Assembly (NCBI GenBank): GCA_964422835.1
Contig: CAYRCR010000001.1
Location: 22,030 to 86,029 of the forward strand
DNA from: an uncultured Gammaproteobacteria bacterium
GTDB lineage: Bacteria; Patescibacteriota; Microgenomatia; Daviesbacterales; UBA10151
Length of the DNA stretch: 64,000 nucleotides
Direction: 5' to 3'
Below are positions 39,468-63,996 of the stretch, in pieces. The translations under genes and the position numbers were made by a program. The notes below the pieces were generated by a model that saw nothing but the letters and a program-made list of their open reading frames with translations, was not told the origin of the DNA and made no database searches. Numbering within the stretch: position 1 is the first letter of the stretch; every line of letters begins with the position of its first letter.

Positions 39468-39504
39468 TGTTTTATTTTATTAAGTCTAAAGGTAAAATGA
39501 TACC

Positions 39505-46432: not shown

Positions 46433-46496
46433 TCTCCACAGCTCGAGCTCAATCCGTACTTTACCATATTTGTGAGGAATTAGCTTAAGGTTATTT

Positions 46497-46988: not shown

Positions 46989-47008
46989 TGTACATTATAA
47001 TATACGAT

Positions 47009-47692: not shown

Positions 47693-47696
47693 ATAT

Positions 47697-48044: not shown

Positions 48045-49710
48045 TTATTTTGCTTTTCCCTCTTTCAGAGGAATATATTTTATTAAGTTCTGGAATTATT
48101 GTTTCATTGTCCATTAAAATATTCAGGTTTTCATCATTTGCCAGCTCTAAATCCCAAGCTAGGATATAATCAACATTGTTAATTTTAGCATAATCCAAAA
48201 GTTTCGGTAAAGATACTTGCGGCATATAAATTGTTTCCCCTTCCGTATAAAACTCTACCCCCTCGTGTCTCATCATTATTTTTAGGTTTTTATGGGGAAT
48301 GTTTTCTTTAATCCAATCGCTTACTTCAATAATCTCCTTATTTTCATGAATTGACGTTAACTTATCGGCATATTGATATGGTTCTGTTATATTTTTTAAG
48401 GACATCGAGGGAAGAAGGAGGGTGGTTAAAAATGGCACCAGAGCCGCAATTTTAGCAAATCTCGGAAAATACAAAAAAATATTATAAAACCCCAAATAAA
48501 ATAAATAAAGTAAAAAAGGGAATGACCAAAGAAGATATCGGATGTCAAATGTAGGTGTTGAAAAAATGATTACAGGAATAGAGATGCACATAATAGAAAA
48601 GAGATATATAAGTGGAATAAACATCTTTTTTCTAATTGCCCCAAAAAGGCCTATGACAGTAAGAGGCCAAAACCATAATGGAAATATAGATAAATATATT
48701 TTTTCCCAGTGCAGTAATTTCCGGTTAAATGAATTTAAATAAATATAAAATCTATTTAACATAATGCTCGCACCATTTTTGAAATATGGGGATTTATAGT
48801 TGGGGAATTTAGCAGACGCTACTTCTTGAGCCCATGTTTTACCATTTGAGCGAAGCTCAAAAACCTGGCCTTGCTGCATTTGGGCTGAAAACTTTTGCGA
48901 AAGTGTCCATTCCCCAAGCTGAATTCTTAAAGCTATTGTATAAGGAGAAATAACGGCTAGGAATATAGCCGCGCAGATTAAGATCGTCCGCAATTTCCTG
49001 CTAATTATTTTTTTATTCGAGGAGTATTGAAAAATCCAGTAACCAAGAAGGAATATGACAGTAAGAGAGAAGAACATCAAACCCTCTGATCTCGTCAAAA
49101 AACTTAAGCCAAATATTAGTGAACTAGCCATCAAATTTCTTTCAATATGCTTTTGGGAGAAAAGAGCCAGAAAAATAAGAACAACCGCAGAAGTAATCAA
49201 AAAAATAAATAAGGCATCGGATAAAGCAATAAAAGTTACATCCATCAAAGGCACAAACATAAGAAGACTTAGACAAAAAAGGAAGGCATGAAATTTTGTT
49301 AAGCTCTCTTTCACCAAAAAATAAAATGGGATTAATAAAATGGACGCGGAAATAAACGAAATTGACCGCAGTGATAATTCCCATGTTGGTATTATGAAGT
49401 GAATCAGTGCGGAAACTGCCGGGAACAATGGAGGCCAGGTTGGATGAAAAAAATATGCAAACTGTCCCCTTGATAAAGCTTTCGCTAAACTGGCGTAAAC
49501 GGCATCGTCGGAATAGAAAGTATAACCAGAATTCAAAAGGATAATAAGCCGCGAAGCAATTATTAAAGTAGTAGCCAAGAAAAGAACGATGAATAAAATG
49601 TTTATTTTTATTTTGAACATATGAGTCTTTATTTTTTTATAGTAATTTCCTGGTTTCAGAACTGGTATCATGAAGTCCATCTTCAAAATATACAAATGTA
49701 AAAACATCAT
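48025..49710 (-). CDS. Polytopic membrane GT-C-type glycosyltransferase candidate.
   Basis: 'SGYTFYSDDAVYASLAKAL' acidic motif after helix 1; 561 aa with a roughly 130 aa soluble C-terminal domain. The likely true start is the Met of 'MFKIKINILF' (about 49620). Confidence 0.5.
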   Translation of the reverse strand: MMFLHLYILKMDFMIPVLKPGNYYKKIKTHMFKIKINILFIVLFLATTLIIASRLIILLNSGYTFYSDDAVYASLAKALSRGQFAYFFHPTWPPLFPAVSALIHFIIPTWELSLRSISFISASILLIPFYFLVKESLTKFHAFLFCLSLLMFVPLMDVTFIALSDALFIFLITSAVVLIFLALFSQKHIERNLMASSLIFGLSFLTRSEGLMFFSLTVIFLLGYWIFQYSSNKKIISRKLRTILICAAIFLAVISPYTIALRIQLGEWTLSQKFSAQMQQGQVFELRSNGKTWAQEVASAKFPNYKSPYFKNGASIMLNRFYIYLNSFNRKLLHWEKIYLSIFPLWFWPLTVIGLFGAIRKKMFIPLIYLFSIMCISIPVIIFSTPTFDIRYLLWSFPFLLYLFYLGFYNIFLYFPRFAKIAALVPFLTTLLLPSMSLKNITEPYQYADKLTSIHENKEIIEVSDWIKENIPHKNLKIMMRHEGVEFYTEGETIYMPQVSLPKLLDYAKINNVDYILAWDLELANDENLNILMDNETIIPELNKIYSSERGKSKIIIYELL

Positions 49711-51343
49711 CTGGTGTTAGGCCTGGATTTTGTTTCAGCAAATCCGGGATTTCATCTATCGTCTGGGGTAAAATAATATTATCTTGATTGGTATAATAAT
49801 GAACAGCAAAAGCTACCTCTGACCCGAAATAACCTACTCTTGAGGCATCCCCCACTGCAAAATCCAACTTCTGATTTGCCCCCTTCATGAAGATTACTTT
49901 CTTTGATTTAATTTCAGGTATATAAATTTTCAAGTCCTGAAAAATTTTTTTGGAATGCCTGCTATAATCATTAACAAAAGTCTGCTGGCTCAAAAAGGAA
50001 GCTGTTAGGCGTAATGAAATAATTATTGCTATAAAACCAATAAATAAAAATTTGGCTATTATTCTTTTCGCATAAGTCCCCTGGAAATATTCCTGGGATA
50101 CAAAAATGATTGGCAATAGGGCGGGGACAAAGGAGGGTAAAAGAAGATAGCGATTATAACTTACTAAAACCCTTTCTGGTATCGAAATAAAAAAAATTGA
50201 GTTGATGCCAAAAATTGCTACCAAACTGAAAATTGATAAAAGTTTGTACTTGGACATATTCATAAAGATCCATAATAGCAAAAAAGATAAAAAGATCCCT
50301 CCATTAAAAATTGATGCCAAATCATATTTATAAATATTAATCCGAAAAAGAAGGATCGCCAAAAATACTGATAAAAGCAAAAACATAATTAATATTTTTC
50401 CAAATAACGCAAAATTATAAATTTTTGGTCTCAAAAGCTTTAAAATAAGAAGTGAAACCAAACTGACGATTAAAGCAGGCAAGCCCGAAAGGTAAAACCT
50501 TAATAAATTGAACTCACTTCCCGGTAAACCAAGTTTTCGATAGAATAATTCCTGAAAATCGGACGGGAAAATCATGTTCCAAAATGTTCCTAAAGGGTTT
50601 AATAAATATAAAGGGAAAAAATTTATGAGTAATCCCAAATAATTGCCCCCGGGGGGGATTTTGTAACCTAAAACCCACGATGACGGGTGAATAAAATACT
50701 GGACTAAAAAAATGGATATAAAGGAAAAACATCTAATAATCAACCCCCAATTCCATTTTCTCCATGAAATTACCAAATCCAAACTAATCAAAAAAATTAT
50801 TGACCCAGCAACTCTATGGGGTGCAATCTCCAATGTTAGGAAAAAGAATATTAGAGTAAATAGATAATAAATTTTCCTATGATTGTTGAGATATTTTAAA
50901 AAAAATAATAAAGTAATAAGCAGTACAATTAACGACATTATAGCGCTAAAACAATCCAGAGTCATTTTCATATCATCCTGGCCAATATACCCTACTGCAA
51001 AAATAAGTGTTGAGAAAAGGGCTATTTTTGAATCTTTGAATAAATTAGAGAGAAATTTAAATAGAAGTCCCGCAGCAAAGGCATATAGAATTATCACTGC
51101 CATAAAATAAATTTCAGTTCTCATTCCAAACATCCGCCATGCCAATAAGTCCAACAATTGGGTAATTTGATAAGGATAGGCAAACAATCCCTTTTGTAGT
51201 AAATCCGGGTGTTGCGCAAAATACAAGGCAGCGTAATCATCCCGCCAGAAATACATCTGGAGTAGTTGATGGTAAGACAAAAATACAACACCTGAAAGGA
51301 GTATATATGGAAACAGTTTCTTGCCAAATTGTAATATATTCAT
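49637..51343 (-). CDS. Polytopic membrane GT-C-type glycosyltransferase candidate. First member of the tandem triplet.
   Basis: 'QMYFWRDDYAALYF' motif; 568 aa with more than 12 helices. Confidence 0.5.
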   Translation of the reverse strand: MNILQFGKKLFPYILLSGVVFLSYHQLLQMYFWRDDYAALYFAQHPDLLQKGLFAYPYQITQLLDLLAWRMFGMRTEIYFMAVIILYAFAAGLLFKFLSNLFKDSKIALFSTLIFAVGYIGQDDMKMTLDCFSAIMSLIVLLITLLFFLKYLNNHRKIYYLFTLIFFFLTLEIAPHRVAGSIIFLISLDLVISWRKWNWGLIIRCFSFISIFLVQYFIHPSSWVLGYKIPPGGNYLGLLINFFPLYLLNPLGTFWNMIFPSDFQELFYRKLGLPGSEFNLLRFYLSGLPALIVSLVSLLILKLLRPKIYNFALFGKILIMFLLLSVFLAILLFRINIYKYDLASIFNGGIFLSFLLLWIFMNMSKYKLLSIFSLVAIFGINSIFFISIPERVLVSYNRYLLLPSFVPALLPIIFVSQEYFQGTYAKRIIAKFLFIGFIAIIISLRLTASFLSQQTFVNDYSRHSKKIFQDLKIYIPEIKSKKVIFMKGANQKLDFAVGDASRVGYFGSEVAFAVHYYTNQDNIILPQTIDEIPDLLKQNPGLTPDDVFTFVYFEDGLHDTSSETRKLL

Positions 51344-53439
51344 TTTGTTTTATAGATATTAATTTCATTTATGACCCAAGGTGCATATTCGTGGTCACCA
51401 ATTTGTGTGATATTAACAAAACGGCTCTTGTAAGGGCTAAAATATAAATCTGTGCGGCCGTTTTTTGGGGGAAAAAGCTTCTCATAGAAGACTTCCTCCC
51501 ATATTTTCCCATCCTTGGAGAGTAAAACCTGATAGCCATTCCTATTTTGGTCTTTATTCCCCACGGAATTTATCTCAATTCGTGCAAGTTCGTAGATATT
51601 TCCCATATCTATGGTAAAATCCTGGGGATTTTCAATTGGCAGTTTCGAATCCCAAAAAGTGGTCTGTGAATTATCCAGCATCAGAAAAGAATCGTGATTA
51701 TTGCTTGAAGTTTCGATATTCCAGCCAACTTTTGGCATCACCTCTTTTTCTGCCAGAAAACTAACCAGTCGACCTCGAATTTGCAATGTGGTGTCCGTAA
51801 ACATCCCTTTCTCACCATCATAAGAAAAAGCAATTACAGAATCGGAAGAAATATAATTCTGCCTAATAGTCATACTCATCAAATTAAAATCACGAAAATA
51901 TCCAAATCCACGTCCCGCAAACTCTTTATAACCCTGATCGGTTAGATTCCAAAGAAACTCATTTTTAAAAAAATCCACTGTGAAATATTCAGTTGGATTG
52001 TAAATAATAAGAAGTAGTTGTCCGAACCCTGATTGAAAAGGCATTATTCTTTCATCTTCTGACGAGCCATAAAACGAAGAGTCACTATTAGTATAAAAAA
52101 TTGTTTTTTGTTGTAATTGTGGATATGAATTCACTATTTGACTGATAATTGATTTCCTTATTTGTCCAATTTCAACCAGCTTATCTACTGTTTTCCTCAA
52201 TGAAAATATATGGAAAGATAGCGCGACTGATAAAGCAAGAAGTCCTAAAATTTTAATTACCATTTTTTTAGTAGAGACTATCCATATTACTAATGACCCC
52301 ACGATTAAACTCAAACCCACTGTAGCCGGATAAAGGTATCTCGAATCCACATAGGTCAAATATCTATTGAGTACAAGAAGTGGTAAAATTGTAAATGAAA
52401 TAATTCCTACGCCCCAAAAAAGCAATTGTTTCACCTCAATCTTTCGGCTAACCCGCCATATTAAGGCTACAAACAGAAACCCTAAGGGAATTGTTAAAAG
52501 ATCATACCTAAAACCATTTTCAATTGTCCATGGCCCCCGCGCCAAGTATTGGTATATATTAAAGGGAGAAGTTGTCATATTAGATATATATACCAAGACT
52601 TCATTTGGGAAAAAAATCTGGGGAAAGATTTTAAAGATGGATGTGAGGAAATTATACCCAAGGATTAAAACACGATCATCCCCGGATTGGATGCCCGAAA
52701 CCTGGGCAACTCTTACATTAAATAAAAGATACGCAAACCGAAATAGCGAATAGAGGGTTAGTACTAATACTATTGATACTGCACCAATAATCTTTAATCT
52801 AACTTTCTGGCTAAAAAGTATAATTAATCCCAAAGTTAACAAAAATGTTAATGCAGTCTCTTTAAAGAGTAGACTTATAAGCAATAAACTAAAAGTTAAT
52901 AATAAAAACTTGAATCTTTTTTTTTCAATATATAAAAGATACGAAACAAGCGACATTGAGCCAAATAATACTGAAAATTCTACCCCTTCAAAAGTGCCAA
53001 TCCAAGTAACTGCTTGGTAATGGCTACTATTGACTGCAAAAAAGATCGATCCTAGAAACGCTGGAAATTTTTTCTTTGTTAACATAAAAATTAGCAAATA
53101 AACAGAAACTGATACTAAAAAGTGGATAAAAACACTCACCATAAAATATGAAGCTGCGTTTAATACAAATAGCCGATACAAACTCATTTTAAAAATTAAG
53201 GATAGGGGGGCAAAGTGAAAAGGGAAATCGCTGATGAGCATATTTCCTAAAAACTCCATTCCCTTTAAAGACAAAAGAAAGTTATAATTTCCAAAACTAT
53301 GCCATTCATCCTGCTCAAAGTATGAATTCCAAAGCCCTAAATATGCAAGGATAGCACCTCCCAAAATAGTAAAAAGAATAATTAGAAAAGGTGCATCTTT
53401 TTGAATCCTTTGAAAGTTTTTCCAACTATTTTTGACCAT
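51340..53439 (-). CDS. Polytopic membrane GT-C-type glycosyltransferase candidate with a C-terminal F5/8 type C (discoidin)-like domain. Second member of the triplet.
   Basis: 'NSYFEQDEWHSFGNY' motif. C-terminal 'TTFWDSKLPIENPQDFTIDMGNIYELARIEINSVGNKDQNRNGYQVLLSKDGKIWEEV' has the discoidin pattern (W...Q...DLG....v..i.i.......Y.v..S.DG..W). 699 aa. Confidence 0.5.
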   Translation of the reverse strand: MVKNSWKNFQRIQKDAPFLIILFTILGGAILAYLGLWNSYFEQDEWHSFGNYNFLLSLKGMEFLGNMLISDFPFHFAPLSLIFKMSLYRLFVLNAASYFMVSVFIHFLVSVSVYLLIFMLTKKKFPAFLGSIFFAVNSSHYQAVTWIGTFEGVEFSVLFGSMSLVSYLLYIEKKRFKFLLLTFSLLLISLLFKETALTFLLTLGLIILFSQKVRLKIIGAVSIVLVLTLYSLFRFAYLLFNVRVAQVSGIQSGDDRVLILGYNFLTSIFKIFPQIFFPNEVLVYISNMTTSPFNIYQYLARGPWTIENGFRYDLLTIPLGFLFVALIWRVSRKIEVKQLLFWGVGIISFTILPLLVLNRYLTYVDSRYLYPATVGLSLIVGSLVIWIVSTKKMVIKILGLLALSVALSFHIFSLRKTVDKLVEIGQIRKSIISQIVNSYPQLQQKTIFYTNSDSSFYGSSEDERIMPFQSGFGQLLLIIYNPTEYFTVDFFKNEFLWNLTDQGYKEFAGRGFGYFRDFNLMSMTIRQNYISSDSVIAFSYDGEKGMFTDTTLQIRGRLVSFLAEKEVMPKVGWNIETSSNNHDSFLMLDNSQTTFWDSKLPIENPQDFTIDMGNIYELARIEINSVGNKDQNRNGYQVLLSKDGKIWEEVFYEKLFPPKNGRTDLYFSPYKSRFVNITQIGDHEYAPWVINEINIYKTK

Positions 53440-55081
53440 TATGTGTTGATACCTCCAATTCCTCTCTTGCCTGCTTTGTATTATCTATGAGAGTTTTTGA
53501 TCCAGCCAGATAGATATAACTAATGACTGATGAGGAGGACAAGTTATTTTTTTTTACTGCTTCTTTCAGACGCTCCATGTTCCGGAAATAACCAAACCCC
53601 CTCTCCCCTTTCTCGAGATATCCTTCCTCTGTCAGTCTATACAGGTATTCAGATTCCTCAACTAATGGCTTTAGCGAAAGCTCTGATGGCAAATACCAAA
53701 CCATTAAAGTTCTCCCTAGATTCGTCTCAAATGGAAAAATCTTCTCGGACACTGGAAGCCCATAAAATGGAGTATCGCTAATCATAAAGAAAACTGCTTT
53801 TTGTGGCAAGTTTGGGTAATCTATTTTTATTTTAGATAAAATCTCCTTTCTCTCTGCACCCTGGGCAGTTGAAATACCAAGCTCTGACTTTAACCCAATA
53901 AAGTTTATCACTAAAAAGGGTAGGACAATAAGCGATATTAATAACTTTCTTCCATTTGAAATCAAATGTGCAGCCGAAACTAAAAAAACCGCGCTACCCA
54001 AAGAAGGTAGATAAATATTGCGTGAATCCACAATTGGTATACTTCCAGATCTACCTGGAGATAAAACATATATAAAACTATTTAAGACAACAAATAAAAA
54101 ACCGAAAATTAACGCTTTTACCACCATTCTATCTTTTGATTTCTTAACTAATAAAATTAGAAGAATTATTCCTGCAGCAAAGATAGTCCAGTCAACTACC
54201 TGCAGGGTAACATTTTCTACAAAGACATCAAAGGAGGTAGTGCCATACAAACCAGTTGAAGATAGTGGAAGCAATTTTGTAATTATCTTTGCTATCCTCA
54301 ACAGATCAATAGTGGGAATAAGTGATTGAGAAAATATCTTTGCAGGAAAAGATAATAAATTGTTTATGATATCAGCAAAAGATTGTGTTTCAAGAACAAC
54401 GCGGTCCTCAATGTTTGACTTTCCAAAAAATATCATTAAAAAACGGAAAAGAAAATAAAAGAAGCCCGCGAGGGCTATCTTTACATAGTTTGACCAATTT
54501 TTTTTAAGTTTTTGTTTGTCATATATATAAATCAAAAGGAATAAGAGTAAAATAAAAGCAACTGTTATTTCTTTAAATAAAAGAGAGATGAGAAAACTAG
54601 TAATAGCTAACCAAATTTTATTAAATTTAGAATTTATAAAAAAAATGAGAGCAAGGAGCCCGAAGATTGTTGATCCATGCGTATTTATATCCGCCGCGAT
54701 CCAGGATGTTGCCTGATATCCCGATGCCTCTACAGAAAAAAATAAACCTGCTAATAGACCCAAAAAATAACTTTTAAAGAGTTTTGAAAATAATATACAG
54801 GAAAGAAAGACAACGATAAGATGTGCAAAAATGCTTGATAGCGCATACCAAAAAAAATTAAGTTCATATACGGATAGATAAAGATGAAGGAGTAAATCTG
54901 TAAAAGGTGTGTAGTGGGAAATTGCAGGTTTAAAAACAGAGATTAGACTCTTATCTGAAGTAAGGAAGAACCCAAAAGCCCGCCATTCATCATGCTGGAA
55001 AAATCCTCCCGTAATTGGGAAATAAGCTACAAATGTAAAAATTAAGATTATAAAAAGTAAAGCAACATCAAATTTCTTCAT
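53426..55081 (-). CDS. Polytopic membrane GT-C-type glycosyltransferase candidate. Third member of the triplet.
   Basis: 'GGFFQHDEWRAFGFF' motif. C-terminal 'FYGLPVSEKIFPFETNLG...EEGYLEKGERGFGYFRN' is colinear with 'FYGSSEDERIMPFQSGFG...DQGYKEFAGRGFGYFRD' in the 51340 ORF. Confidence 0.5.
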   Translation of the reverse strand: MKKFDVALLFIILIFTFVAYFPITGGFFQHDEWRAFGFFLTSDKSLISVFKPAISHYTPFTDLLLHLYLSVYELNFFWYALSSIFAHLIVVFLSCILFSKLFKSYFLGLLAGLFFSVEASGYQATSWIAADINTHGSTIFGLLALIFFINSKFNKIWLAITSFLISLLFKEITVAFILLLFLLIYIYDKQKLKKNWSNYVKIALAGFFYFLFRFLMIFFGKSNIEDRVVLETQSFADIINNLLSFPAKIFSQSLIPTIDLLRIAKIITKLLPLSSTGLYGTTSFDVFVENVTLQVVDWTIFAAGIILLILLVKKSKDRMVVKALIFGFLFVVLNSFIYVLSPGRSGSIPIVDSRNIYLPSLGSAVFLVSAAHLISNGRKLLISLIVLPFLVINFIGLKSELGISTAQGAERKEILSKIKIDYPNLPQKAVFFMISDTPFYGLPVSEKIFPFETNLGRTLMVWYLPSELSLKPLVEESEYLYRLTEEGYLEKGERGFGYFRNMERLKEAVKKNNLSSSSVISYIYLAGSKTLIDNTKQAREELEVSTHNGQK

Positions 55082-55101
55082 ATCTTAAATAAGTCAAAAT
55101 G

Positions 55102-56127
55102 TTAAATTTTTGACAGGAGATTTTTTATAAGCTTTACAACAAAACCCCTCCCTTGAGGTCTAGACACAAAACCCCAGACTATTGCATCAGTTGTAGTCAT
55201 TGCAACAATAGGGTGCCATAAAAAGGCAGGGTCTCTATGTTTGATTGTACGTAACACTCCTCTGATTAATTCAGGAATAAACAAGTTTGCATATGCAACC
55301 CAAAAGAAAATCTTTAAGAGATCCTTTCTCTTTTTTGGATCAAACCACAAATAATATTTATGGTTCAAATTTGGAAGATAATCCCTTTCCAAATTTCTTA
55401 GTCTTTTTATAATCAACAATTTTAGATTTTCAGCATGATAATGCCTTATTTTTGCTAGGGGGACATAGGCAAAGAGTTGATGTCCAGCCCTCGCAACTAT
55501 CTCTATACTCTCTAAATCTATAAATGACTTATCTTTCCCAACTACTGTTTTTAAAAGTTCCTTCCGGCGGTATAAAATCCTCCCCATTGCAGGTATTTTC
55601 CCAGGGGTAAAATTGCAAAGGAAATATTTTTCCCTTTTTTCAATGACCGTACTTGCTATTGAAGGCGAAAAAAAAGCGTAGAGAGGATCCTGCATTAAGG
55701 GATGGTGTGCAATAAACCGCAAAAGAGAACTCTTAACTCGAGGTTTTGTCTCTATAGAAAACTCTTTAGTAAAACTTCCTATAATTTTTTTATCTTCCAA
55801 AAGAGGGTTTGCAAGTAATTCAAAAAAATTATTACAGCAGACTTCCATATCAGCATCAAACCAGTAAACTAAATCATTTTTTGCTGCATGCATTCCAATC
55901 CCTTTATTAAGTTCAATATCATGCGTTTTAACATTTAGAATCCGCGCTCCAAATTTTCGGGCTAACTTTTCACTATTATCATTTGATCCATCGTTTACCA
56001 CGATATATTCAATTTTATTTCTAGGATATGTTTGACTTTTTAAAGAATTAAAGAGTCTTTTTAAATTGTCCTCTTCATTAAAAACCGGAATAATTGCGGA
56101 AATACTAGGTAGCACTTTTTTAAGCAT
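55102..56127 (-). CDS. Glycosyltransferase family 2.
   Basis: 'ISAIIPVFNEEDNLKRLFNSL...IEYIVVNDGSNDNS...YWFDADMEV'; 341 aa. Confidence 0.8.
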   Translation of the reverse strand: MLKKVLPSISAIIPVFNEEDNLKRLFNSLKSQTYPRNKIEYIVVNDGSNDNSEKLARKFGARILNVKTHDIELNKGIGMHAAKNDLVYWFDADMEVCCNNFFELLANPLLEDKKIIGSFTKEFSIETKPRVKSSLLRFIAHHPLMQDPLYAFFSPSIASTVIEKREKYFLCNFTPGKIPAMGRILYRRKELLKTVVGKDKSFIDLESIEIVARAGHQLFAYVPLAKIRHYHAENLKLLIIKRLRNLERDYLPNLNHKYYLWFDPKKRKDLLKIFFWVAYANLFIPELIRGVLRTIKHRDPAFLWHPIVAMTTTDAIVWGFVSRPQGRGFVVKLIKNLLSKI

Positions 56128-56160
56128 AATGCTATTATATCTCTAACCTTTAAAGGCAGT

Positions 56161-57612
56161 ATGAAAGTTCATTTTATTATCCCTTCTAACACAGAAAAAG
56201 GCAAGCGAGAAGTTTTAGATAAAATATTTGGATGCCACTATGGTTATTTTCCACAACACAATATTTTTACACTAGGTCTTACCGCAGTAATAAAAAAAAT
56301 GGGTTATGAAGTTGAGATGTCAGATTGTGCAATTGAAAAAATAACTTTAAACGATGCTCTGGAAAGAGGAGGGGATGTTTTTATATTTTATTCAGTTTTC
56401 TTAAGTAGGGAAATTGATCTTTGGGCTGCAGACCAAATCAAAAAAAAGCTTGGTAAAAAATGGATGATCTTTTTAGGTAATGATCCTGTTTTCTTTTCGG
56501 ATAAATATCTGATTTCGCAAAATCATATTTTAATCCGTGGTGAACCTGAAGAAACAATTGTTGATTTATTAAAAGAATTAGAAAAAAATAAACCTGTTTT
56601 TAAAAAAGTAAAGGGAATCAGTTGGGTAAGCAGAGGGAAAGTTATTCACAATACTCCAAGAAAATATATCGAAGATCTTGATAAGTTACCTCTTCCCGAC
56701 CGAATGATTCTTAAAAAACCATTGGAGTACTCAAATGCCCGTTTTTCTAAATTTCCCTCTACAACCATGTATACGTCCAGGGGCTGTGCATACAACTGTC
56801 TATTCTGCTTCCCAAACTCCTTTAGTTTTGCCAGAGAGTTGGAATGGAAAAATGTCCATAAGGTTAAACCTCCAGTAAGAGTTAGATCCTCAAGAAGTGT
56901 CATTAAAGAATTTGAGCAAATACATAAACAGGGTTTCCGCTCTGTTTCAATAGTTGATGATCAGTTTCTTTGGGATAGAAGAAGAACAGAAGAAATCTTT
57001 AAAGGAGTCAAAAAATTAAACATGGAAATTTCGATTCTGGCCCGTTGTGATAGGATAACTGACTATCCTCTAGTTAAAATGATGTTTGACGCAGGAGTAA
57101 GACATATTGCTTTTGGAGTAGAATCTTTTAACCAATCAATACTTAACTACATTAGAAAGGATTTAAAGGTAGAAACTATTGCCAAAGCAATAAAATGGTG
57201 CAAAAAAGCAGGTATAAAACCGGAAATTAATATAATTTTGGGAAGCTGCCCGTTGGAAACAAAAGAAACAATTGCCAATACAATAAACGAAGTTGAAAAA
57301 TTAAATGTTGATATAATTCATCTAAACATTATCGCCCCTTTCCCTGGTACGGATTATGCCAAACTTGCTAAGGAAAAAGGATGGATGACAGTAGATGAAT
57401 ATATACCGATTGACCCTGCTGCCCAAAGTTTAATCTCATATCCACATTTAACTGATAAGGATTTAGTCAAAGCAGTAAAGGGATTTATTTTTAAACATTA
57501 CTTTTCGCCTAAATATATCCTTAGAAATATCTCCAAAGTTAAATCACCAAACGAACTTTGGAACAAGATAAAAGCAGGTGTCTATGAATTTAAACTTCTT
57601 TTAATAAAATGA
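56161..57612 (+). CDS. Cobalamin (B12)-binding domain radical SAM enzyme.
   Basis: N-terminal Rossmann-like B12-binding region ('VFIFYSVFLSREIDLW...MIFLGNDPVF'), followed by the radical-SAM cluster motif 'YTSRGCAYNCLFCF' (CxxxCxxC). 483 aa. Confidence 0.75.
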   Translation: MKVHFIIPSNTEKGKREVLDKIFGCHYGYFPQHNIFTLGLTAVIKKMGYEVEMSDCAIEKITLNDALERGGDVFIFYSVFLSREIDLWAADQIKKKLGKKWMIFLGNDPVFFSDKYLISQNHILIRGEPEETIVDLLKELEKNKPVFKKVKGISWVSRGKVIHNTPRKYIEDLDKLPLPDRMILKKPLEYSNARFSKFPSTTMYTSRGCAYNCLFCFPNSFSFARELEWKNVHKVKPPVRVRSSRSVIKEFEQIHKQGFRSVSIVDDQFLWDRRRTEEIFKGVKKLNMEISILARCDRITDYPLVKMMFDAGVRHIAFGVESFNQSILNYIRKDLKVETIAKAIKWCKKAGIKPEINIILGSCPLETKETIANTINEVEKLNVDIIHLNIIAPFPGTDYAKLAKEKGWMTVDEYIPIDPAAQSLISYPHLTDKDLVKAVKGFIFKHYFSPKYILRNISKVKSPNELWNKIKAGVYEFKLLLIK

Positions 57613-58622
57613 GTATATTCCCTTCAGCTACTATCATAATTCCTACCTTAAACCGCAAATATGTTTTAGAAGAAGCTCTTTTGTCATTAAATAAAGTTGA
57701 TTACCCAAGAGATCTACTTAAAGTAGTAGTAGTTAACGACGGTTCATCGGATGGAACAAAAGAACTTCTTAAGAGAATTAAAAACAGATTAAACTATGAA
57801 TTCAGGTCTTACAATGAAAAGAGAAAAGGGATTTCTCACGCTAAAAATACAGCAATCAAAAAGTCCAAGGGAGAAGTAATTATTTCAACAGATGATGATT
57901 GTTTATTTGAAAAAACATGGCTTAAAAAATTAATTAAGCCATTAGAGAATGATTCTGTAGGCTCTGTTGGAGGACCTGATCGAGCTATTAAAGATGAACA
58001 TGTGCTGGCTAAAAGTGTTGATTTCGCTTTTTCTAGTTTTATTGGTTCAGGAGGAATTCATGGGAGATTTTTAAAAGTAAAACTTGGTAAGTTCTACCCT
58101 CCTGGATGTAATATGGCATTTAAGCGTAAACTTGTTAAGCAAATAGGTTTTTTTGATGAAACCTTGGCACCTGGAGAAGACACGGATTATAATCATAGAA
58201 TAGAAAAAGCTGGATATAAATTAATTTATGTCCCCACAGCCTTTGTCTGGCATAGACCGAGAAACAGCATCAGAAGGTTTATCCCTTATATCTTTAAAAG
58301 AGGAAAGGCAAGGGTGGAAATTATCCGACGCTATCCAGAATATAAAGAATACATATATTATCTTCCAGCAATTATTGTGGTAGTTGGTTTTCTACTTCTT
58401 TTATTATCATTTGTTTCACCAATTTTCCTTATAACCTTTGCAATCCTAATATTATTCTACACTACACTACTTGTTAGCGCTGGGCTTTCTGCCTACAGAA
58501 CCTACCACAATCTGGCATACTTTTTTATAGTTCCACTACTAATCTTCCTTCAGCATACATTTCATGGAGTAGGATTTATAAAAGGGGTCTGGGACTTTTA
58601 CTTCAAGTCCAAACTAGACTGA
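57609..58622 (+). CDS. Glycosyltransferase family 2 with C-terminal TM helices.
   Basis: 'ATIIIPTLNRKYVLEEALLSL...LKVVVVNDGSSDGT...ISTDDDCLFE'. Two C-terminal hydrophobic helices. Its start overlaps the upstream radical SAM stop (ATGA). Confidence 0.8.
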   Translation: MSIFPSATIIIPTLNRKYVLEEALLSLNKVDYPRDLLKVVVVNDGSSDGTKELLKRIKNRLNYEFRSYNEKRKGISHAKNTAIKKSKGEVIISTDDDCLFEKTWLKKLIKPLENDSVGSVGGPDRAIKDEHVLAKSVDFAFSSFIGSGGIHGRFLKVKLGKFYPPGCNMAFKRKLVKQIGFFDETLAPGEDTDYNHRIEKAGYKLIYVPTAFVWHRPRNSIRRFIPYIFKRGKARVEIIRRYPEYKEYIYYLPAIIVVVGFLLLLLSFVSPIFLITFAILILFYTTLLVSAGLSAYRTYHNLAYFFIVPLLIFLQHTFHGVGFIKGVWDFYFKSKLD

Positions 58623-58641
58623 GGCTGATATTCTAAAAACA

Positions 58642-60183
58642 TTATGTCCCTAATAAACCATCTGATAGCCCTAATTGTTTAAGAAAATACGAGAGACTCA
58701 ACTTAAAAAATCTTTTTGGTGAATGGAATAAAATAGAAACAGCGAGTTTAACTTTTGCAAAGGGGATAGTCTGGTTTACTCTTATCGCTTTTTTGAAAAG
58801 TTTTTTTACCTCTGTTCTTGAGAGGAAAGGCGTTTCAATTATTGGTTCACCAGTACTTAAGCCTTTTACAAAATTACCGGTTTCTTTATTTGTCAACCAA
58901 CCATTGTTAACCGCAATTTGATAAGCTTCAGTCCCGCGATGTGGAACCAAAACACCGAAACCACAATCATTTACTCCAAGTTTTTTTAACTCACGGGCAT
59001 ATTTTATTGTTTTCTCCACCTGATTTTTCTTTTCCCCAGGCATACCAATCAAAAAAAAGGCATCTACCGGGAGCCTATACTTCCGGCACCAATTGACAAC
59101 TTGTTTTACTTTTTTTAAATTCAGCTTCTTATGCATCAAGTTATCTACCACCCATTGGCTACCGGATTCAGGAGCAACAATTGTTCTTGTGCACCCTGAT
59201 TGCTTCATCTTCCTAACCAACTCCTCATCAACTGTATCAGCCCGTATTCCATTGGGAGTACTCCATTCAATTTCCCATCCTTTCTCGATTATTTTATCGC
59301 ATATCTTTTTTGCCCTTTCTTTATTTAGGGTAAAATTATCATCTTCAATATCGAAATGTTGAATTTTATATTTTTTGATCAAATAATCCATTTCAGCAAT
59401 AACATTATCCACACTTCTTGGCCTAAAAATCCTTCCCATAACTAAATGGCCTGCACAAAAAGCACAGGTAAATGGACAGCCTCTGCTGGTAAAAATAGTC
59501 GCCCATCTTCTGCCAAATGTAGAAATACTGCGGGAAGACCTTACATTTCTGGCAGCTTCAAAATATTTATCCATGGGAAACAGCTCCCACGCAACACGAT
59601 ATCTATCCAAATCAGTTAAAGGTAATCTTGTTGTATTTACAATTGTTTTTCCTTTTTTTTTAAAAATTAGCCCATGAATTTTACTGTATTTATTACTCTT
59701 TCTCTTAATAGCTTTAGTCAACTCCAACATAGTTAATTCTCCTTCCCCTAAAACTGCAAAATCGATATTGTTATCATCCAATATTGTTTCTGCGTACGCA
59801 GTGGGATAAGCTCCGCCAACAACTACTTTTATATCTGGGTTAACTTCTTTAACAACCATTGCTATTTCATGACCAGCTTTAGATTGTGCAGTAAAAGGCA
59901 TCGTTATACCTACAATGTCTGGAGTAATTCTTTTAATTCTTTTTTTTATTTCAGTTTTATTCAATCCTACATAGCGATTTGATCCCTCGTCCACAAATTC
60001 CTCATGGTCATTTCCTTCTGCCAAAATATCAAAAATTTTGACATTTATATTGTTATCCAATAGATGTCCTGCAATATACCCTAAACCTAAAGGTTGGAAG
60101 GCGTTCAACGGGTAATTTATATTAGCTGGAGTAAATTGACCGGGATTAATTAAAAGAACTTTCATTGGTATATTATATATCAC
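58642..60183 (-). CDS. Cobalamin (B12)-binding domain radical SAM enzyme. Second copy, distinct sequence.
   Basis: 'VLLINPGQF...LGLGYIAGHL...DIVGITMPFTAQ' B12-binding/Rossmann region and 'FTSRGCPFTCAFCAGH' CxxxCxxC motif; 513 aa. Confidence 0.75.
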   Translation of the reverse strand: MIYNIPMKVLLINPGQFTPANINYPLNAFQPLGLGYIAGHLLDNNINVKIFDILAEGNDHEEFVDEGSNRYVGLNKTEIKKRIKRITPDIVGITMPFTAQSKAGHEIAMVVKEVNPDIKVVVGGAYPTAYAETILDDNNIDFAVLGEGELTMLELTKAIKRKSNKYSKIHGLIFKKKGKTIVNTTRLPLTDLDRYRVAWELFPMDKYFEAARNVRSSRSISTFGRRWATIFTSRGCPFTCAFCAGHLVMGRIFRPRSVDNVIAEMDYLIKKYKIQHFDIEDDNFTLNKERAKKICDKIIEKGWEIEWSTPNGIRADTVDEELVRKMKQSGCTRTIVAPESGSQWVVDNLMHKKLNLKKVKQVVNWCRKYRLPVDAFFLIGMPGEKKNQVEKTIKYARELKKLGVNDCGFGVLVPHRGTEAYQIAVNNGWLTNKETGNFVKGLSTGEPIIETPFLSRTEVKKLFKKAIRVNQTIPFAKVKLAVSILFHSPKRFFKLSLSYFLKQLGLSDGLLGT

Positions 60184-60184
60184 T

Positions 60185-62203
60185 TCACTTAAAAATTAAT
60201 GCCTTGGCAGAAGTATAGTTTAGAGGACAAGCATTTGTATTTTCAAACACAAAGCTTGCATACCTTGCCTCTTTTCCGGCAATAAAATACTCTATTTCAT
60301 TCGCACTTATATTTTCTTTTTGTTTGATTTGTCGAAATGGAATTGGATCTTTTTCTCGAGTCCAGCTTGATCCATCTTGTGAGATTTTAACAAAAGCTGC
60401 CTTTGGTGTTAAACATCCCGACAAAGGATTAAAAAATAAATATAGCCTGCTGATCGGAACAATTTTACCAAAATCCAGCATAATTTGGTTATCCGATGTC
60501 TTATCTATCAAAGGATTTGGTAATTCCACTTCGTTTTTTTTCGACATTTCTCTGGTGTGCTCAATGTCATTTTTCCAAACTTTTAGTATTGGGACACCGT
60601 CAACTTTTAGTTCATAAACCGGATATAAAAAGTTCTCCACATACTCCCAAGCATAGTTAAAGTCGCGAGTTGAGTCATTAAAAGTTAAATCCATAAGATA
60701 CTCTCCTTCACGCACTATCCCGCTCAAATTCCCAGATTTGAAGTCAATATCTTTCCTTAAAAAAATCACCGGCGCGTTAGCGGCCGTACCCTGAATTAAG
60801 GATAATCTACTATTATTTTCTACATTCTCGTTTACCCATTTTATCCCCTGAAAGTAAGCATTGCCAAAACTATTTCCCCAAGAAGGGAAATTTTTTTCAT
60901 AAGCACCAGGTAAACCTCCTATTAATGAATTAAAATAAACATTTTCATAAGGATGAAGTTTTATCAAAATCCATAAAGGCCAAATAAAAATGATCATTAA
61001 TACAATTTTAACAACTAATCCCTTATTAATTTGTGTAATTTGCCATGCACCAAGACCCGAAAGCAAGGCCATTGCCGGCAAAAATTCCATTATTTGTCTG
61101 ACACCACCATAAATAACGGTCCCGGGTAGCGTAACCCTTAAAAGGGGCACCACAAGCCACAAAAGCCATAATAATGTCAGTTGTTTTTTCTCCCCTTTTA
61201 AGGCAAAAAGGGACAATAAGCCGAAAAAGAATAAAATAAGTATTAAGGGTGGGGTAGTAAATATAATCCAAAGAACCGGAAACATATTAAAATTATGAAA
61301 ATAAAAATTATCGGGCTGGTAATGGAAATTTGTACCAATTTCCCGGTAATATCCAAAAATACTTTGTAAATTCCAAACATTCTGCCAAAGATAAGGCCAT
61401 GAACCTAAAAATATTAATCCTACAATAACCATCCCCCCCAAAAACCCCAATATCATTTTTTTCGGAAAAATTTTATGTAAGTTTAGGGGTAATAAAAGCT
61501 TCTTCCTGTATCTCAACAAAAGATAGGGAATAATTATCGCCGGTAGGAATAATATATTAAATTTGGTTCCTAAAGCTAAGGAAAAAAATACCGATGAAAT
61601 CAAAAGCCAGCGGATACTCCCTTTTTGCAAAGCCTTCCAGAAAGCCCAGATGCATCCTGTAAAAAAAGCTGCTTCCGGAGGATCCTTAATATTAAAGTGA
61701 GATTCGGACCAAAAAAGAGGATAGGTTACAAGTGCCAAAAATGATACGAAGCTTGCAAAAACACCCATTGTCTCCAAGGCAAAAGAAACCACAACAAAAA
61801 CAAAGAGTGATGAAGCCAGAATATTAAACAGATGGTGCGCCTCAATATCTCCTAAAACCCCTAATTTTTGAAAGAAAATAAAATTTGACAGGGCTGCCAA
61901 TTCATCATTTAAAGGGGGATGCCCGCTATCATTCTTTAACATATATTCGCCGTTATATAGATCACTCTGATAAAAACTTCGCCTTGGAATGGCAATTTTG
62001 TTTGGATCACCATTAGTACCCTGTAGATCCACTTTAGGCAAATCATCATATGTTGTTTCTCCAGTTAAAAAATAGCGCAGGTAGGCCTGTCCTCTATAAA
62101 AATGCAAAGTTTCGTCCCAGGAAATTCCATAATGAGGAAGGGTAAAAAGTGCGGAGAAAAAAAAGACAGTTGCAAGTAATATTGGAATAAATTTCTTCAT
62201 CAA
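60185..62203 (-). CDS. GT39/ArnT-like membrane glycosyltransferase with an extracytoplasmic C-terminal domain. Paralog of the 37467..39467 gene.
   Basis: 'HYGISWDETLHFYRGQAYLRYFLTG...NDSGHPPLNDELAAL...GDIEAHHLF' and 'FNSLIGGLPGAYEKNFPSWGNSFGNAYFQ...VYELKVDGVPILKVWKNDIEHT'; 672 aa. Confidence 0.65.
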   Translation of the reverse strand: MMKKFIPILLATVFFFSALFTLPHYGISWDETLHFYRGQAYLRYFLTGETTYDDLPKVDLQGTNGDPNKIAIPRRSFYQSDLYNGEYMLKNDSGHPPLNDELAALSNFIFFQKLGVLGDIEAHHLFNILASSLFVFVVVSFALETMGVFASFVSFLALVTYPLFWSESHFNIKDPPEAAFFTGCIWAFWKALQKGSIRWLLISSVFFSLALGTKFNILFLPAIIIPYLLLRYRKKLLLPLNLHKIFPKKMILGFLGGMVIVGLIFLGSWPYLWQNVWNLQSIFGYYREIGTNFHYQPDNFYFHNFNMFPVLWIIFTTPPLILILFFFGLLSLFALKGEKKQLTLLWLLWLVVPLLRVTLPGTVIYGGVRQIMEFLPAMALLSGLGAWQITQINKGLVVKIVLMIIFIWPLWILIKLHPYENVYFNSLIGGLPGAYEKNFPSWGNSFGNAYFQGIKWVNENVENNSRLSLIQGTAANAPVIFLRKDIDFKSGNLSGIVREGEYLMDLTFNDSTRDFNYAWEYVENFLYPVYELKVDGVPILKVWKNDIEHTREMSKKNEVELPNPLIDKTSDNQIMLDFGKIVPISRLYLFFNPLSGCLTPKAAFVKISQDGSSWTREKDPIPFRQIKQKENISANEIEYFIAGKEARYASFVFENTNACPLNYTSAKALIFK

Positions 62204-63996
62204 TTCTCTACAAATTTCTTAATTAGCCCCCTATCGCTGATTTCATTAAAATCCAAATTCCGAAGACTTATGGATTGGATTTCTATCTTAACTGGCGCTC
62301 CTGGCACACTTATTTTAAGGTCTTGAACAACCGTTCCACCAGTGTCCAACGGTAATTCATATATATTTTCACGATCAAGATTACCTACGGTAATCTTTTT
62401 TAAATTCTTACCTTTATTAGTATTCCAGTTGATCTCAATATTTAAAAGAGGTGCAATATTTTTCAAGATTAAATTTAACTCCTCTTCATTGGCAATAAAA
62501 TCAAATGGTGAATCCAGAAAAGAAAAGGCATCTGCAAGATCAATATCATTGTAAGCAGACTCTACCACCTCTAATTCAGTTAGTGCAGGCGCATCATTTA
62601 CTAAGGTTTCAGTAATATCCATCCTGACATACCGTCCCTCAATCTCATCAAATGCATCTGTTACTATTTCTCCACTTTTCCTTTCTGGACCATGAACAAC
62701 TTTTTTTACATCCTCCCATTTATTTTTATCTTTAGAAACACTTATTACATATGATGTGGGTGTTAAGGTATTATTCCAGTTAGTCCAGATAAGTTTCCCT
62801 ACTCTTTTAATCCTGCCTAAATCAAGAGTAATTTGCTCTTTCTGGTGTTCATGCCAAAAAATTCTATGACCACGCCAACTGGTATTAATATTATTATCCA
62901 CTGCGTTTTCCGTTTCCTGATACTTCCACTGTGATAGACTGGATACTTTAACATTGCTGTAATATTCCTTTCTAGATAAAAGATAGGCAATAATTTCCTC
63001 TTTTTCTCCTACGGTTTTTGTGCTGAACTTCTTGCCACTTGGAGAATAGGGATATGTGATATTTGATATATCAGGCATAATTTTAGCTTTTAAATTTAGT
63101 AATAATGGAGATACCGAGGAGATTTTAATGTTATCCCTTAAAATAGATATAAGAGATGGCGATTCATGTTTTAATGATAACGCTTGAGATTCTGAACCCC
63201 TTGTAAGCGAGTTCCTAACTTCATTAGTTGTGTCTTCCAAACCATTTTCACCAAAATAAAAACTGTGGATATTATTAATGCCAATTTGTTTAGTTGAAAT
63301 TTTATAAAGCAATTCATTAAAATTTTCAGTCAAGGCAATATCATAACGGTCAACTCCATAGTAGATTGCAAGAGCTGTGGATTCAGGCATAGACCCAACA
63401 GAAAAGAAATCTATAAATTGTTGTTGATAATATCTTTTATCAATTACATCAAAAAAGAAAATGTCACCCTTTTGAACATTGGGCACATAATTTTTCAAAT
63501 TCTTATAAAAGGCCTCAGTTGGGCGGCTTATATTTTTTATAATTTTATTTTGATATATAACTCCCAAAAATAAATTAACTCCGATAAATAAAAATAACGG
63601 TGTAACCGCTAATAAATAGGTAAACTTCCCAAAATTATTACTTTTAACTACTTTTTCAAATATCGCAAATGTTATTCCACCTATAATAATACAATAACCA
63701 ATAAAACTATAAGATAAATACCTATGAGTTGTGGCAAAAATAGCATCTTGGTACTGAATAAAATAGCCTAAGAACTGTGATATAACTACGATAATACCTA
63801 AAATTAAGGCTATTGATAATTCTTTCATTTTTTTCCATAAAACTAAGGCTAAAAATCCAGCCAGCACAGGAATATACATCCCCAATGCTCCAGCGCTAAT
63901 ATCCAAACCTATTCTATACCAAAAAAAATTTTTCGTTATAAAATAACAATTTAAAAAGAAGATGCTAGTAAATACCGAAATACTTGTTATTTTCAA
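62200..63996 (-). CDS. Polytopic membrane protein with a C-terminal F5/8 type C (discoidin)-like domain. The ORF reaches the right edge of the window, so the real N-terminus may lie beyond it.
   Basis: The N-terminal approximately 150 aa are hydrophobic helices. 'NNINTSWRGHRIFWHEHQKEQITLDLGRIKRVGKLIWTNWNNTLTPTSYVISVSKDKNKWEDV' is a good discoidin-domain pattern. The first Met lies 4 nt from the window end. Confidence 0.5.
   Translation of the reverse strand: MKITSISVFTSIFFLNCYFITKNFFWYRIGLDISAGALGMYIPVLAGFLALVLWKKMKELSIALILGIIVVISQFLGYFIQYQDAIFATTHRYLSYSFIGYCIIIGGITFAIFEKVVKSNNFGKFTYLLAVTPLFLFIGVNLFLGVIYQNKIIKNISRPTEAFYKNLKNYVPNVQKGDIFFFDVIDKRYYQQQFIDFFSVGSMPESTALAIYYGVDRYDIALTENFNELLYKISTKQIGINNIHSFYFGENGLEDTTNEVRNSLTRGSESQALSLKHESPSLISILRDNIKISSVSPLLLNLKAKIMPDISNITYPYSPSGKKFSTKTVGEKEEIIAYLLSRKEYYSNVKVSSLSQWKYQETENAVDNNINTSWRGHRIFWHEHQKEQITLDLGRIKRVGKLIWTNWNNTLTPTSYVISVSKDKNKWEDVKKVVHGPERKSGEIVTDAFDEIEGRYVRMDITETLVNDAPALTELEVVESAYNDIDLADAFSFLDSPFDFIANEEELNLILKNIAPLLNIEINWNTNKGKNLKKITVGNLDRENIYELPLDTGGTVVQDLKISVPGAPVKIEIQSISLRNLDFNEISDRGLIKKFVEN

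Follow-up and report, generated by a model that had tools for sequence, protein, structure and literature searches.

AftD is a mycobacterial arabinofuranosyltransferase of the GT-C type whose cryo-EM structure contains three carbohydrate-binding modules (CBMs), one of which has the CBM32 domain 4A45 as a structural homologue, and its authors attribute these modules to the complex glycan acceptor (bioRxiv 10.1101/2019.12.22.885152). [quoted passage not shown] CBM32 modules are found on the C. perfringens proteins NagH, NagJ, NanJ and CpGH89, are used by other bacteria to adhere to glycans of the host and, in the galactose-specific group, have the canonical motif H, Y/W, R, N and F (PMC3313936). 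The logic of three-component extracytoplasmic glycosylation systems has been described for GtrB/GtrA/Gtr*, GacI/J/L and PpgS/Rv3779 (PMC11127046). Classical members of PMT_2 (GT39-GT83; PMT, ArnT) are not known to carry a discoidin domain. Eukaryotic PMTs have a MIR beta-trefoil in a loop.

The window analyzed here is a 64,000-nucleotide stretch of DNA from a groundwater member of the Microgenomates, a monoderm bacterium of the candidate phyla radiation (CPR). Four genes encoding putative membrane sugar transferases with discoidin tails sit within a glycan island of ~59 kb, which comprises at least 14 GT-C-like genes and also holds a Wzx flippase, Bac_transf and many GT4 and GT2 genes (Table 1). 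We refer to ORF 51340 as family 1, to ORF 62200 (P0053) as family 2 and to ORFs 60185 and 37467 as family 3. ORF 62200 is 100% identical to P0053 across all of its 598 aa, and the N-terminal 319 aa of P0053 are encoded outside the window.

The ATG of ORF 60185 shares one nucleotide with the family 2 stop codon (TGATG), and ORFs 53426 and 51340 overlap by 14 nt. The order family 2 to family 3 (to family 1) is conserved and recurs in loci L001, L002, L003 and L005. The scan of genome contigs for related loci relied on exact peptide patterns and thus returned only 5 loci; three of these five are labeled “uncultured Gammaproteobacteria”, which we take as placeholder MAG names. Rfam and tRNA scans were both empty. 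As in the three-component systems, the island has a polyprenyl-phosphate-sugar synthase gene, a DUF2304 partner and a flippase gene. The GT2 protein matches the NCBIfam PpgS model over its full profile (E 8.8e-55), yet under the equivalog cut-off, and is likely the maker of a lipid-linked donor; the pair of GT2 and DUF2304 was found again in the related loci L002 and L008.

Table 1. Features of the locus, with positions in the window; ORFs are named by their first coordinate.
Feature	Position	Strand	Basis
Family 1 protein (ORF 51340), 699 aa: GT-C-like membrane domain, soluble alpha/beta domain, C-terminal discoidin	51340..53439	-	AF2 model
ORF 51340 membrane domain, aa 1-413, 11 TM helices	52201..53439	-	DSSP on AF2 model, positive-inside count
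ORF 51340 D44-E45 codons, first outside loop	53305..53310	-	invariant in family 1
ORF 51340 extracytoplasmic alpha/beta domain, aa 414-565	51745..52200	-	model secondary structure; HMM 1.1e-41
ORF 51340 discoidin/CBM32 domain, aa 574-698	51346..51720	-	PF00754, PDB profiles, Foldseek
Family 2 protein (ORF 62200), final 598 aa of 917-aa P0053	62200..63996	-	100% identity to P0053
ORF 62200 discoidin/CBM32 domain, fragment aa 351-466 = P0053 aa 670-785	62599..62946	-	PF00754, PDB profiles
ORF 62200 additional C-terminal domain, 132 aa	62203..62598	-	conserved across family 2
Family 3 protein (ORF 60185), 672 aa: putative PMT_2 GT-C, soluble domain, shortened discoidin-like tail	60185..62203	-	PMT_2 E 7.5e-11
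ORF 60185 shortened discoidin-like beta-sandwich, aa 558-672	60188..60532	-	profile and fold comparison
Family 3 paralogue (ORF 37467), 666 aa: putative PMT_2 GT-C, same tail type	37467..39467	-	PMT_2 E 4.9e-6; 43% identity to ORF 60185
ORF 37467 divergent discoidin-like tail, aa 553-666	37470..37811	-	homology to ORF 60185 tail
Family 1 paralogue without discoidin (ORF 53426), 551 aa	53426..55081	-	30% identity over 553 columns to ORF 51340
Q-D-(D/E) GT-C lineage paralogue without discoidin	49637..51343	-	family 2 membrane-domain HMM, E 3e-36
Q-D-(D/E) GT-C lineage paralogue without discoidin	41484..42971	-	family 1 membrane-domain HMM, E 9.1e-26
GT2, PpgS/GacI-like putative polyprenyl-phosphate-sugar synthase	46946..47692	+	Glycos_transf_2; NCBIfam PpgS E 8.8e-55
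DUF2304 small membrane protein, putative GacJ-type partner of GT2	47673..48044	+	PF10066 E 2e-18

The tails of ORFs 51340 and 62200 are discoidin/CBM32-type beta-sandwiches. A first-pass annotation, made from the letters of the DNA, had noticed discoidin patterns in both; all four peptide strings that it quoted are present in the ORFs it named, and PF00754 (F5_F8_type_C, gathering cut-off 28.2 bits) is matched by aa 577-689 of ORF 51340 (43.3 bits, E 4.9e-11), by aa 351-463 of ORF 62200 (57.2 bits, E 2.5e-15) and by all 49 of 49 family 2 members. In PDB profile searches, the ORF 51340 domain matched the CBM32 modules of NagH, NagJ and AlyQ, and the family 2 domain matched CBM32 at E 1.3e-11. 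The predicted structures bear out the proposed beta-sandwich: within the AF2 model of ORF 51340 (pLDDT 89.8, pTM 0.87), the discoidin superimposes on 4a41, 4a42 and 2v72 at TMt 0.79-0.82 and rmsd 2.6-2.8 (Foldseek), and CBM32 also ranks top for the tail of ORF 60185. In both sequence and fold, the closest matches are the C. perfringens modules of NagH, NagJ, NanJ and CpGH89, which have the same beta-sandwich with binding loops along one edge but are attached to secreted hydrolases rather than membrane transferases. In ORF 62200 the discoidin is followed by an unrelated domain of 132 aa without a Pfam match; a second discoidin was considered for this segment and rejected (hhalign <1%).

ORFs 60185 and 37467 carry a shortened and divergent discoidin, which is visible only by profile and fold comparison. 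The weaker discoidin claimed earlier for this pair holds up at that level and falls below the Pfam threshold: ORF 60185 remained under the PF00754 gathering score, both as a whole protein (E 0.083) and as a tail alone (E 0.0037, 17.8 bits), and ORF 37467 has no PF00754 match and no discoidin signal of its own. Among family 3 tails, 31 of 36 match PF00754 at E<=1 (best 8.7e-7), and hhalign relates the family 3 tail to the discoidins of families 1 and 2 with 91-96.5% probability. The AF2 model of the ORF 60185 tail (pLDDT 87) returned CBM32 and factor V/VIII C2 domains as top Foldseek matches (E 3e-5), and since the TM scores are only 0.43-0.54, it is read as a reduced version of the fold. Because only Pfam profile positions 34-114 are covered, the family 3 domain lacks the N-terminal third, the part that bears one binding loop. 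C597 and C659 of the ORF 60185 tail are near-invariant, and both cysteines are aligned in ORF 37467, whose 43% identity to ORF 60185 extends across 669 columns and takes in the tail.

One possible explanation is that the module has no ligand and stabilizes the outside domain as a structural cap or as a remnant in decay, mostly in ORFs 60185 and 37467. The reduction to profile positions 34-114, a TM score of ~0.5 to real CBM32s, the absence of a signal in ORF 37467 and the repeated loss of the module would all fit. However, the discoidin is conserved like the catalytic parts (0.57-0.60 versus 0.45-0.63 for the remaining protein) and is kept in 68 of 68 family 2 and 111 of 120 family 3 relatives, and its invariant residues are aromatic and polar ones of the exposed type, not just core hydrophobics, arguing that a ligand-free module is improbable.

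The discoidin tails lie outside the membrane. All four proteins have 11-13 TM helices with the N-terminus inside and the tail outside. A fixed-threshold hydropathy scan, in which 8-10 helices were called and the side of the tail was ambiguous, was replaced by helices taken from the AF2 model (ORF 51340) and by hand-checked hydropathy (two other proteins), yielding counts of 11 (ORF 51340), 13 and 11. The odd counts are accompanied by a positive-inside bias (K+R density per residue of 0.31-0.44 in inside loops versus 0.05-0.07 in outside loops) and, in family 3, by the near-invariant cysteine pair. The tail is on the same side as the acidic D-E/D-D motif following TM1, in agreement with the first-pass annotation, which had further placed it after the last TM helix. 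The latter requires revision: in all four proteins the last TM helix and the discoidin are separated by a soluble domain of ~110-150 aa, and the discoidin of ORF 62200 is not terminal. The alignment of ORF 51340 with ORF 53426 spans the alpha/beta domain and stops where the discoidin would start.

All four ORFs probably encode GT-C-type membrane proteins, as had been proposed, judging from PMT_2 matches in the proteins or their relatives, the fold match to STT3 and the acidic motif. PF13231 (PMT_2, gathering cut-off 26.1 bits) matches ORF 60185 (42.9 bits, E 7.5e-11) and ORF 37467 (27.3 bits, E 4.9e-6), and with these two the proposed PMT/ArnT membership stands. It does not extend to ORFs 51340 and 62200: a Pfam search found no PMT_2 match in ORF 51340 or P0053 themselves, and an NCBIfam search of the four proteins returned nothing. 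The PMT_2 threshold is exceeded by the family members P0048 (43.3 bits) and P0075 (31.5 bits), the latter holding PMT_2 and F5_F8_type_C on one chain, and PMT_2 appears at E<=1 in 11 of 41 family 1 members. The whole chain of ORF 51340 matched yeast STT3 (8agc_A) in Foldseek with E 8.7e-6 over 637 columns, at a modest TM score of 0.36. Families 1 and 2 are homologous over 622 columns (hhalign 99.9%, E 3.9e-32). The membrane domains of families 1 and 3 showed no similarity in hhalign (3%), so families 1 and 2 are not close PMT_2 relatives; nor do the soluble domains in the middle of the family 1 and family 3 proteins resemble each other. ORFs 51340 and 62200 belong to a divergent, unannotated sister lineage, linked to PMT_2 only through some homologues and the fold match to STT3.

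The first outside loop has an acidic motif in every family, a likeness to PMT_2 enzymes: family 1 has an invariant D44-E45, family 2 shows D40-D41 with 97% conservation, and in family 3 D30 is invariant and E31 at least 90% conserved. H106, E194, R367 and Y370 are further invariants of the family 1 membrane domain. It could still be argued that the membrane domains of families 1 and 2 belong to a GT-C-shaped enzyme of another kind (a glycan polymerase, ligase or non-sugar transferase, for example), which the discoidin would serve; the missing Pfam and NCBIfam matches of ORF 51340 and P0053, the 3% hhalign value against family 3 and the modest STT3 score point that way and weigh against the GT-C assignment. 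We give this idea a low probability, since relatives pass the PMT_2 threshold over equivalent helices, the D-E motif follows TM1 as in PMTs, and 11-13 TM helices with an outside domain occur near a polyprenyl-phosphate-sugar synthase.

The galactose motif was mapped by alignment to 2j1a. The canonical CBM32 motif is not conserved in family 1 or family 2. Family 2 has R694, R697 and W726 at the H, W and R positions and no counterpart of N, and family 1 has D597, the following Leu (~aa 600), Val (~aa 626) and D630. This motif marks only the galactose subgroup, not the CBM32 fold family. Invariant aromatic and polar residues occupy the same loops that bind sugar in CBM32. The invariant positions of the domain are W596, Q631, G635, Q679, G681, H683 and W688 in the family 1 discoidin (ORF 51340) and R697, W700, W723 and Y735 in that of family 2 (P0053).

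The discoidin folds of factor V/VIII C2, DDR and APC10 have non-sugar ligands. Recognition of a protein acceptor (an S-layer protein or pilin), of a partner GT-C in a complex or of a membrane lipid is accordingly an alternative to which we give some, though minor, weight. It would account for the absent galactose motif, for the presence of lipid binders (lactadherin, factor VIII C2), a collagen binder (DDR2) and neuropilin among the fold matches, and for the adjacency of three discoidin-bearing GT-C genes with overlapping stop and start codons; PMT-type GT-Cs, moreover, mostly act on proteins. Nevertheless, bacterial CBM32 sugar binders account for all of the top matches in sequence and fold, residues like those conserved in the loops (W, H, R, D, Q and N) are typical for sugar sites, and the solved GT-C precedents, AftD and EmbC, use such modules for glycans.

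The first-pass annotation had called the fusion uncommon, a view that our survey contradicts: besides the family 2 and family 3 relatives counted above, about half of the best 150 family 1 representatives carry a discoidin, and GT-C enzymes with lectin-like CBMs have already been solved (AftD, EmbC). In a rough NJ tree, the family 1 discoidin was gained or lost at least ~10 times, and one 66%-identical orthologue has none. The module is thus dispensable, and since close orthologues do without it, it would tune the reaction rather than create it.

Together, our results suggest that these proteins are probably GT-C enzymes with an optional, outward-facing discoidin CBM that docks the acceptor glycan. 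We infer sugar binding, donor, acceptor and an effect on catalysis as follows. The PpgS/GacI-like GT2 and its DUF2304 partner would make polyprenyl-phosphate-linked sugars, which the GT-C enzymes would take as donors to extend a glycan or glycoconjugate outside the membrane. The discoidin/CBM32-type tail may act as an accessory carbohydrate-binding module that tethers the acceptor polymer or a neighboring epitope near the active site, raising the local concentration and setting the choice of site, like the CBMs of AftD and EmbC. Weighing against docking are the absent galactose motif, the family 3 domain with one binding loop fewer, the dispensability of the module and the lipid and protein binders (factor V/VIII C2, DDR2) among the fold matches of the ORF 60185 tail model.

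AftD is likewise a GT-C membrane enzyme bearing outside beta-sandwich CBMs, but it has ~1400 aa, three CBMs between TM11 and TM12 and an acyl carrier protein partner, whereas the window proteins have one module at or near the C-terminus and belong to another GT-C lineage and phylum. The Pfam model CBM_AftD matched four family 2 members weakly, and PDB sequence searches with the window-family profiles returned no AftD chains at E<=1. EmbC and EmbB share the C-terminal extracytoplasmic domain on a GT-C enzyme; acceptor binding was demonstrated for EmbC and would be expected here, but the EmbC module has not been reported as discoidin/CBM32 and its donor is decaprenyl-phosphate-arabinose. No reports were found in literature searches on GT-C combined with CBM32, on PMT_2 combined with F5_F8_type_C or on GT-C in Patescibacteria.

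CPR bacteria are frequently episymbionts. Lectin modules that bind host-surface glycans could aid the attachment of such a likely episymbiotic cell, and CBM32 adhesion is known elsewhere. We consider this very improbable: the genes sit within a glycan-synthesis island, no adhesin features were found, and the ORF 51340 discoidin would lie beneath the wall or S-layer, because it joins the membrane enzyme with almost no linker.

A bolder and rather unlikely extension of acceptor docking is that the envelope glycan is built mostly outside the cell from polyprenyl-phosphate monosaccharides, with the discoidin variants on the adjacent, translationally coupled family 2, 3 and 1 GT-Cs each reading the product of an earlier step. 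The order of addition would then be set by lectin modules rather than by a template, and the Q-D-(D/E) proteins would constitute a new family of GT-Cs.

The fusion of discoidin and GT-C carries the AftD/EmbC principle into another phylum without being a new principle in itself. The putative GT-C lineage of families 1 and 2 is missed by present Pfam and NCBIfam models. Orthologue pairs with and without the module provide a natural test of what a CBM contributes to a GT-C enzyme, and isolated discoidin modules could be probes to find or purify the glycan of uncultured Microgenomates. The genomes of CPR bacteria are tiny, yet in this one envelope glycan synthesis takes up ~59 kb, with at least 14 GT-C-like membrane enzymes encoded there.

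The four membrane-protein ORFs reported in the first-pass annotation are present in the window, and the peptides quoted there were recovered in their translations. Two of them carry a discoidin domain (F5/8 type C, PF00754) in the extramembrane C-terminal region, or tail, as the Pfam family F5_F8_type_C was matched above the gathering score at aa 577-689 of ORF 51340 (E 4.9e-11) and aa 351-463 of ORF 62200 (E 2.5e-15). ORF 62200 is cut off at the window end, and the identical database protein P0053 gives a full length of 917 aa. Profiles of family 1 (relatives of ORF 51340) and family 2 (ORF 62200/P0053) were compared with PDB sequences, where every match was to a CBM32 module or to galactose oxidase domain 1, with best E-values of 1.1e-7 and 1.3e-11, respectively. 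From 41 input sequences AlphaFold gave a confident model of ORF 51340 (pLDDT 89.8, pTM 0.87), in which the tail superposes with the CBM32s 4a41, 4a42 and 2v72 (TM ~0.8, rmsd 2.6-2.8 Å). With these Pfam, profile and fold matches, the condition under which the first-pass annotation would have dropped the lectin reading does not apply to ORFs 51340 and 62200.

The second pair, ORFs 60185 and 37467 (family 3), had been credited with weaker discoidin-like segments. The two proteins are 43% identical over their whole length, including the tail. By itself, the ORF 60185 tail reaches PF00754 with an E-value of only 0.0037, and ORF 37467 gave no match in the same search. At the family level, 31 of 36 tails matched PF00754 (best 8.7e-7), in every case at positions 34-114 of the profile, and profile-profile comparison with the family 1 and family 2 discoidins gave 91-96.5% probability. 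For the AF2 model of the ORF 60185 tail (pLDDT 87), Foldseek ranks CBM32, lactadherin and factor VIII C2 domains highest, with a TM of only ~0.5. The segment is a genuine discoidin-like sandwich, though a shortened and divergent one from which the N-terminal third is missing, the region that bears one sugar-binding loop in CBM32. C597 and C659 are near-invariant in family 3 (97% each), which suggests a disulfide, and such a predicted bond fits an extracytoplasmic location of this tail.

Transmembrane helices were taken from the model for ORF 51340 and from hydropathy for the other two proteins. The counts of 11, 13 and 11 helices (ORF 51340, family 2 and family 3), combined with a basic N-terminus and a K+R content of 0.31-0.44 per residue in the short inside-assigned loops vs 0.05-0.07 outside, put the tail outside the cell, where the acidic loop also lies, as had been expected. 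The last helix is followed by a soluble alpha/beta domain of ~110-150 aa and then by the discoidin, which in family 2 is preceded by a poorly conserved stretch of ~95 aa. After the discoidin, family 2 has a further 132-aa domain that matches no Pfam family and does not resemble discoidin. In two homologous loci, L001 and L002, a weak copy of this domain (E 1.9e-5) occurs on a paralogue that lacks the discoidin.

The assignment to the PMT/ArnT family holds directly for ORFs 60185 and 37467, which match PMT_2, whereas neither Pfam nor NCBIfam matches the membrane parts of ORF 51340 and P0053. These two proteins are homologous over 622 columns spanning the membrane, soluble and discoidin parts (hhalign 99.9%, E 3.9e-32), and the window holds three discoidin-less paralogues of their lineage (53426, 49637 and 41484). 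Direct comparison of this lineage with family 3 by hhalign gave 3% and no alignment. However, 11 of 41 family 1 members match PMT_2; two relatives, P0048 and P0075, score above the threshold for PMT_2 across equivalent helices, and P0075 also has F5_F8_type_C; the whole-chain model of ORF 51340 matches yeast STT3 (E 8.7e-6, 637 columns, TM 0.36); and a D-E or D-D pair right behind TM1 is invariant or nearly so. The lineage therefore very probably consists of divergent GT-C enzymes. The first-pass observation of discoidin domains on these membrane proteins is confirmed.

The claim that this fusion is uncommon has to be dropped, since the domain is frequent in all three families and structures of GT-C enzymes with outside-facing CBMs have already been solved for AftD (bioRxiv 10.1101/2019.12.22.885152) and EmbC (PMC3044687). 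It is kept in 68 of 68 family 2 and 111 of 120 family 3 relatives, and is absent from about half of family 1 among the best 150 representatives. In a rough NJ tree of family 1, its presence or absence switches at least 10 times. The relative P0005, 66% identical to ORF 51340, stops just before the discoidin, 45 bp from the next gene; some of the short forms may be miscalled genes.

The window belongs to a bacterium of the candidate phyla radiation (CPR), within the Microgenomates group. In database comparison, ORF 51340 shows 100% identity with an incomplete protein recorded for 'Microgenomates group bacterium GW2011_GWC1', and the relatives found all come from groundwater genomes such as those of Daviesbacteria and Woesebacteria; some already bear the NCBI name 'discoidin domain-containing protein'. 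Family 2 genes also lie on three MAG contigs (L005, L006 and L007) titled 'uncultured Gammaproteobacteria', titles that, given the contigs' gene content, seem to be placeholders or taxonomic errors.

Nearly all genes between about 4.7 kb and the window end serve glycan synthesis. For a CPR bacterium with its small genome, an island that takes up almost the entire window is striking. It encodes a Bac_transf initiating transferase, seven GT4 and several GT2 enzymes, a Wzx-type flippase, methyltransferases, one acetyltransferase and two B12-type radical SAM enzymes. Its GT-C-like membrane proteins number at least 14, with nine PMT_2 ORFs and five ORFs from the Q-D-(D/E) lineage, to which families 1 and 2 and the discoidin-less paralogues belong. 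One GT2 aligns at full length with the polyprenyl-phospho-GalNAc synthase PpgS (E 8.8e-55, below the equivalog cut-off) and is directly followed by a DUF2304 protein, the pairing seen in GacI/GacJ and PpgS/Rv3632, which supply a GT-C enzyme with its lipid-linked donor. The pair is seen again in related loci. Literature on this pairing points to the GacI/GacJ work, and the general three-component logic of extracytoplasmic glycosylation has been described (PMC11127046). In four other loci family 3 directly follows family 2, with a discoidin-bearing family 1 gene third in one; in the window itself, the stop codon of the family 2 gene runs into the start codon of the family 3 gene in the overlap TGATG.

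Possible roles of the two B12-type radical SAM enzymes are synthesis of an unusual sugar and modification of the lipid carrier. In NCBIfam they score best against HpnJ (1.2e-62) and against the Sden_1168 P-methyltransferase family (9.2e-65), neither reaching the cut-off, and the homologous loci L001 and L008 have similar genes at their flanks. Neither Pfam nor NCBIfam matches two large multi-TM proteins that have long outside regions and end with a C-terminal TM helix; by eye they resemble YfhO-type GT-C proteins. The 888-aa ORF, which has only a weak NCBIfam match, may take part in the export of a glycolipid or glycan.

Features of the window, with coordinates and strand
Feature	Coordinates	Strand	Remark
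Glycan-synthesis island	4739..63996		
888-aa ORF	25624..28290	-	NCBIfam MmpA trehalose-lipid delivery, E 1.7e-8, far below cut-off
ORF 37467	37467..39467		family 3
Multi-TM protein, 661 aa	39505..41490	+	
Multi-TM protein, 1029 aa	43343..46432	-	
DUF5667 protein	46497..46988	-	conserved in same neighbourhood in L001 and L008
GT2 and DUF2304 pair	46946..48044	+	
PpgS-like GT2	46946..47692		
ORF 51340	51340..53439		family 1
B12-type radical SAM enzyme	56161..57612	+	between GT-C genes
B12-type radical SAM enzyme	58642..60183	-	between GT-C genes
ORF 60185	60185..62203		family 3
ORF 60185 tail	60188..60532	-	C597, C659
ORF 62200	62200..63996		family 2
Family 2 domain after discoidin	62203..62598	-	132 aa, conserved

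The canonical galactose motif of CBM32 comprises H, Y/W, R, N and F (PMC3313936), and in our alignment it is not kept in family 1 or family 2. The motif-bearing loops nevertheless contain residues that are invariant within each family, namely W596, D630-Q631-N632, Q679, G681, H683 and W688 in family 1 and W693, H696, R697, W700, W723, N725 and Y735 in family 2, and conservation of the discoidin equals that of the catalytic parts. This pattern of conservation fits a working, putative binding site. AftD has three CBMs, one with the CBM32 4A45 as structural homologue, and its authors tied the CBMs to its complex glycan acceptor (bioRxiv 10.1101/2019.12.22.885152). In EmbC, the C-terminal domain is a lectin-like CBM, and mutating tryptophans in it abolishes acceptor binding and activity (PMC3044687). 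The window proteins share this overall plan, with putative sugar binding, but they belong to other GT-C lineages in another phylum and have a single CBM32-type module. The best reading, which we infer, is that the module would dock the glycan as a lectin, and the practical value of these modules lies in their use as a probe for the CPR envelope glycan.
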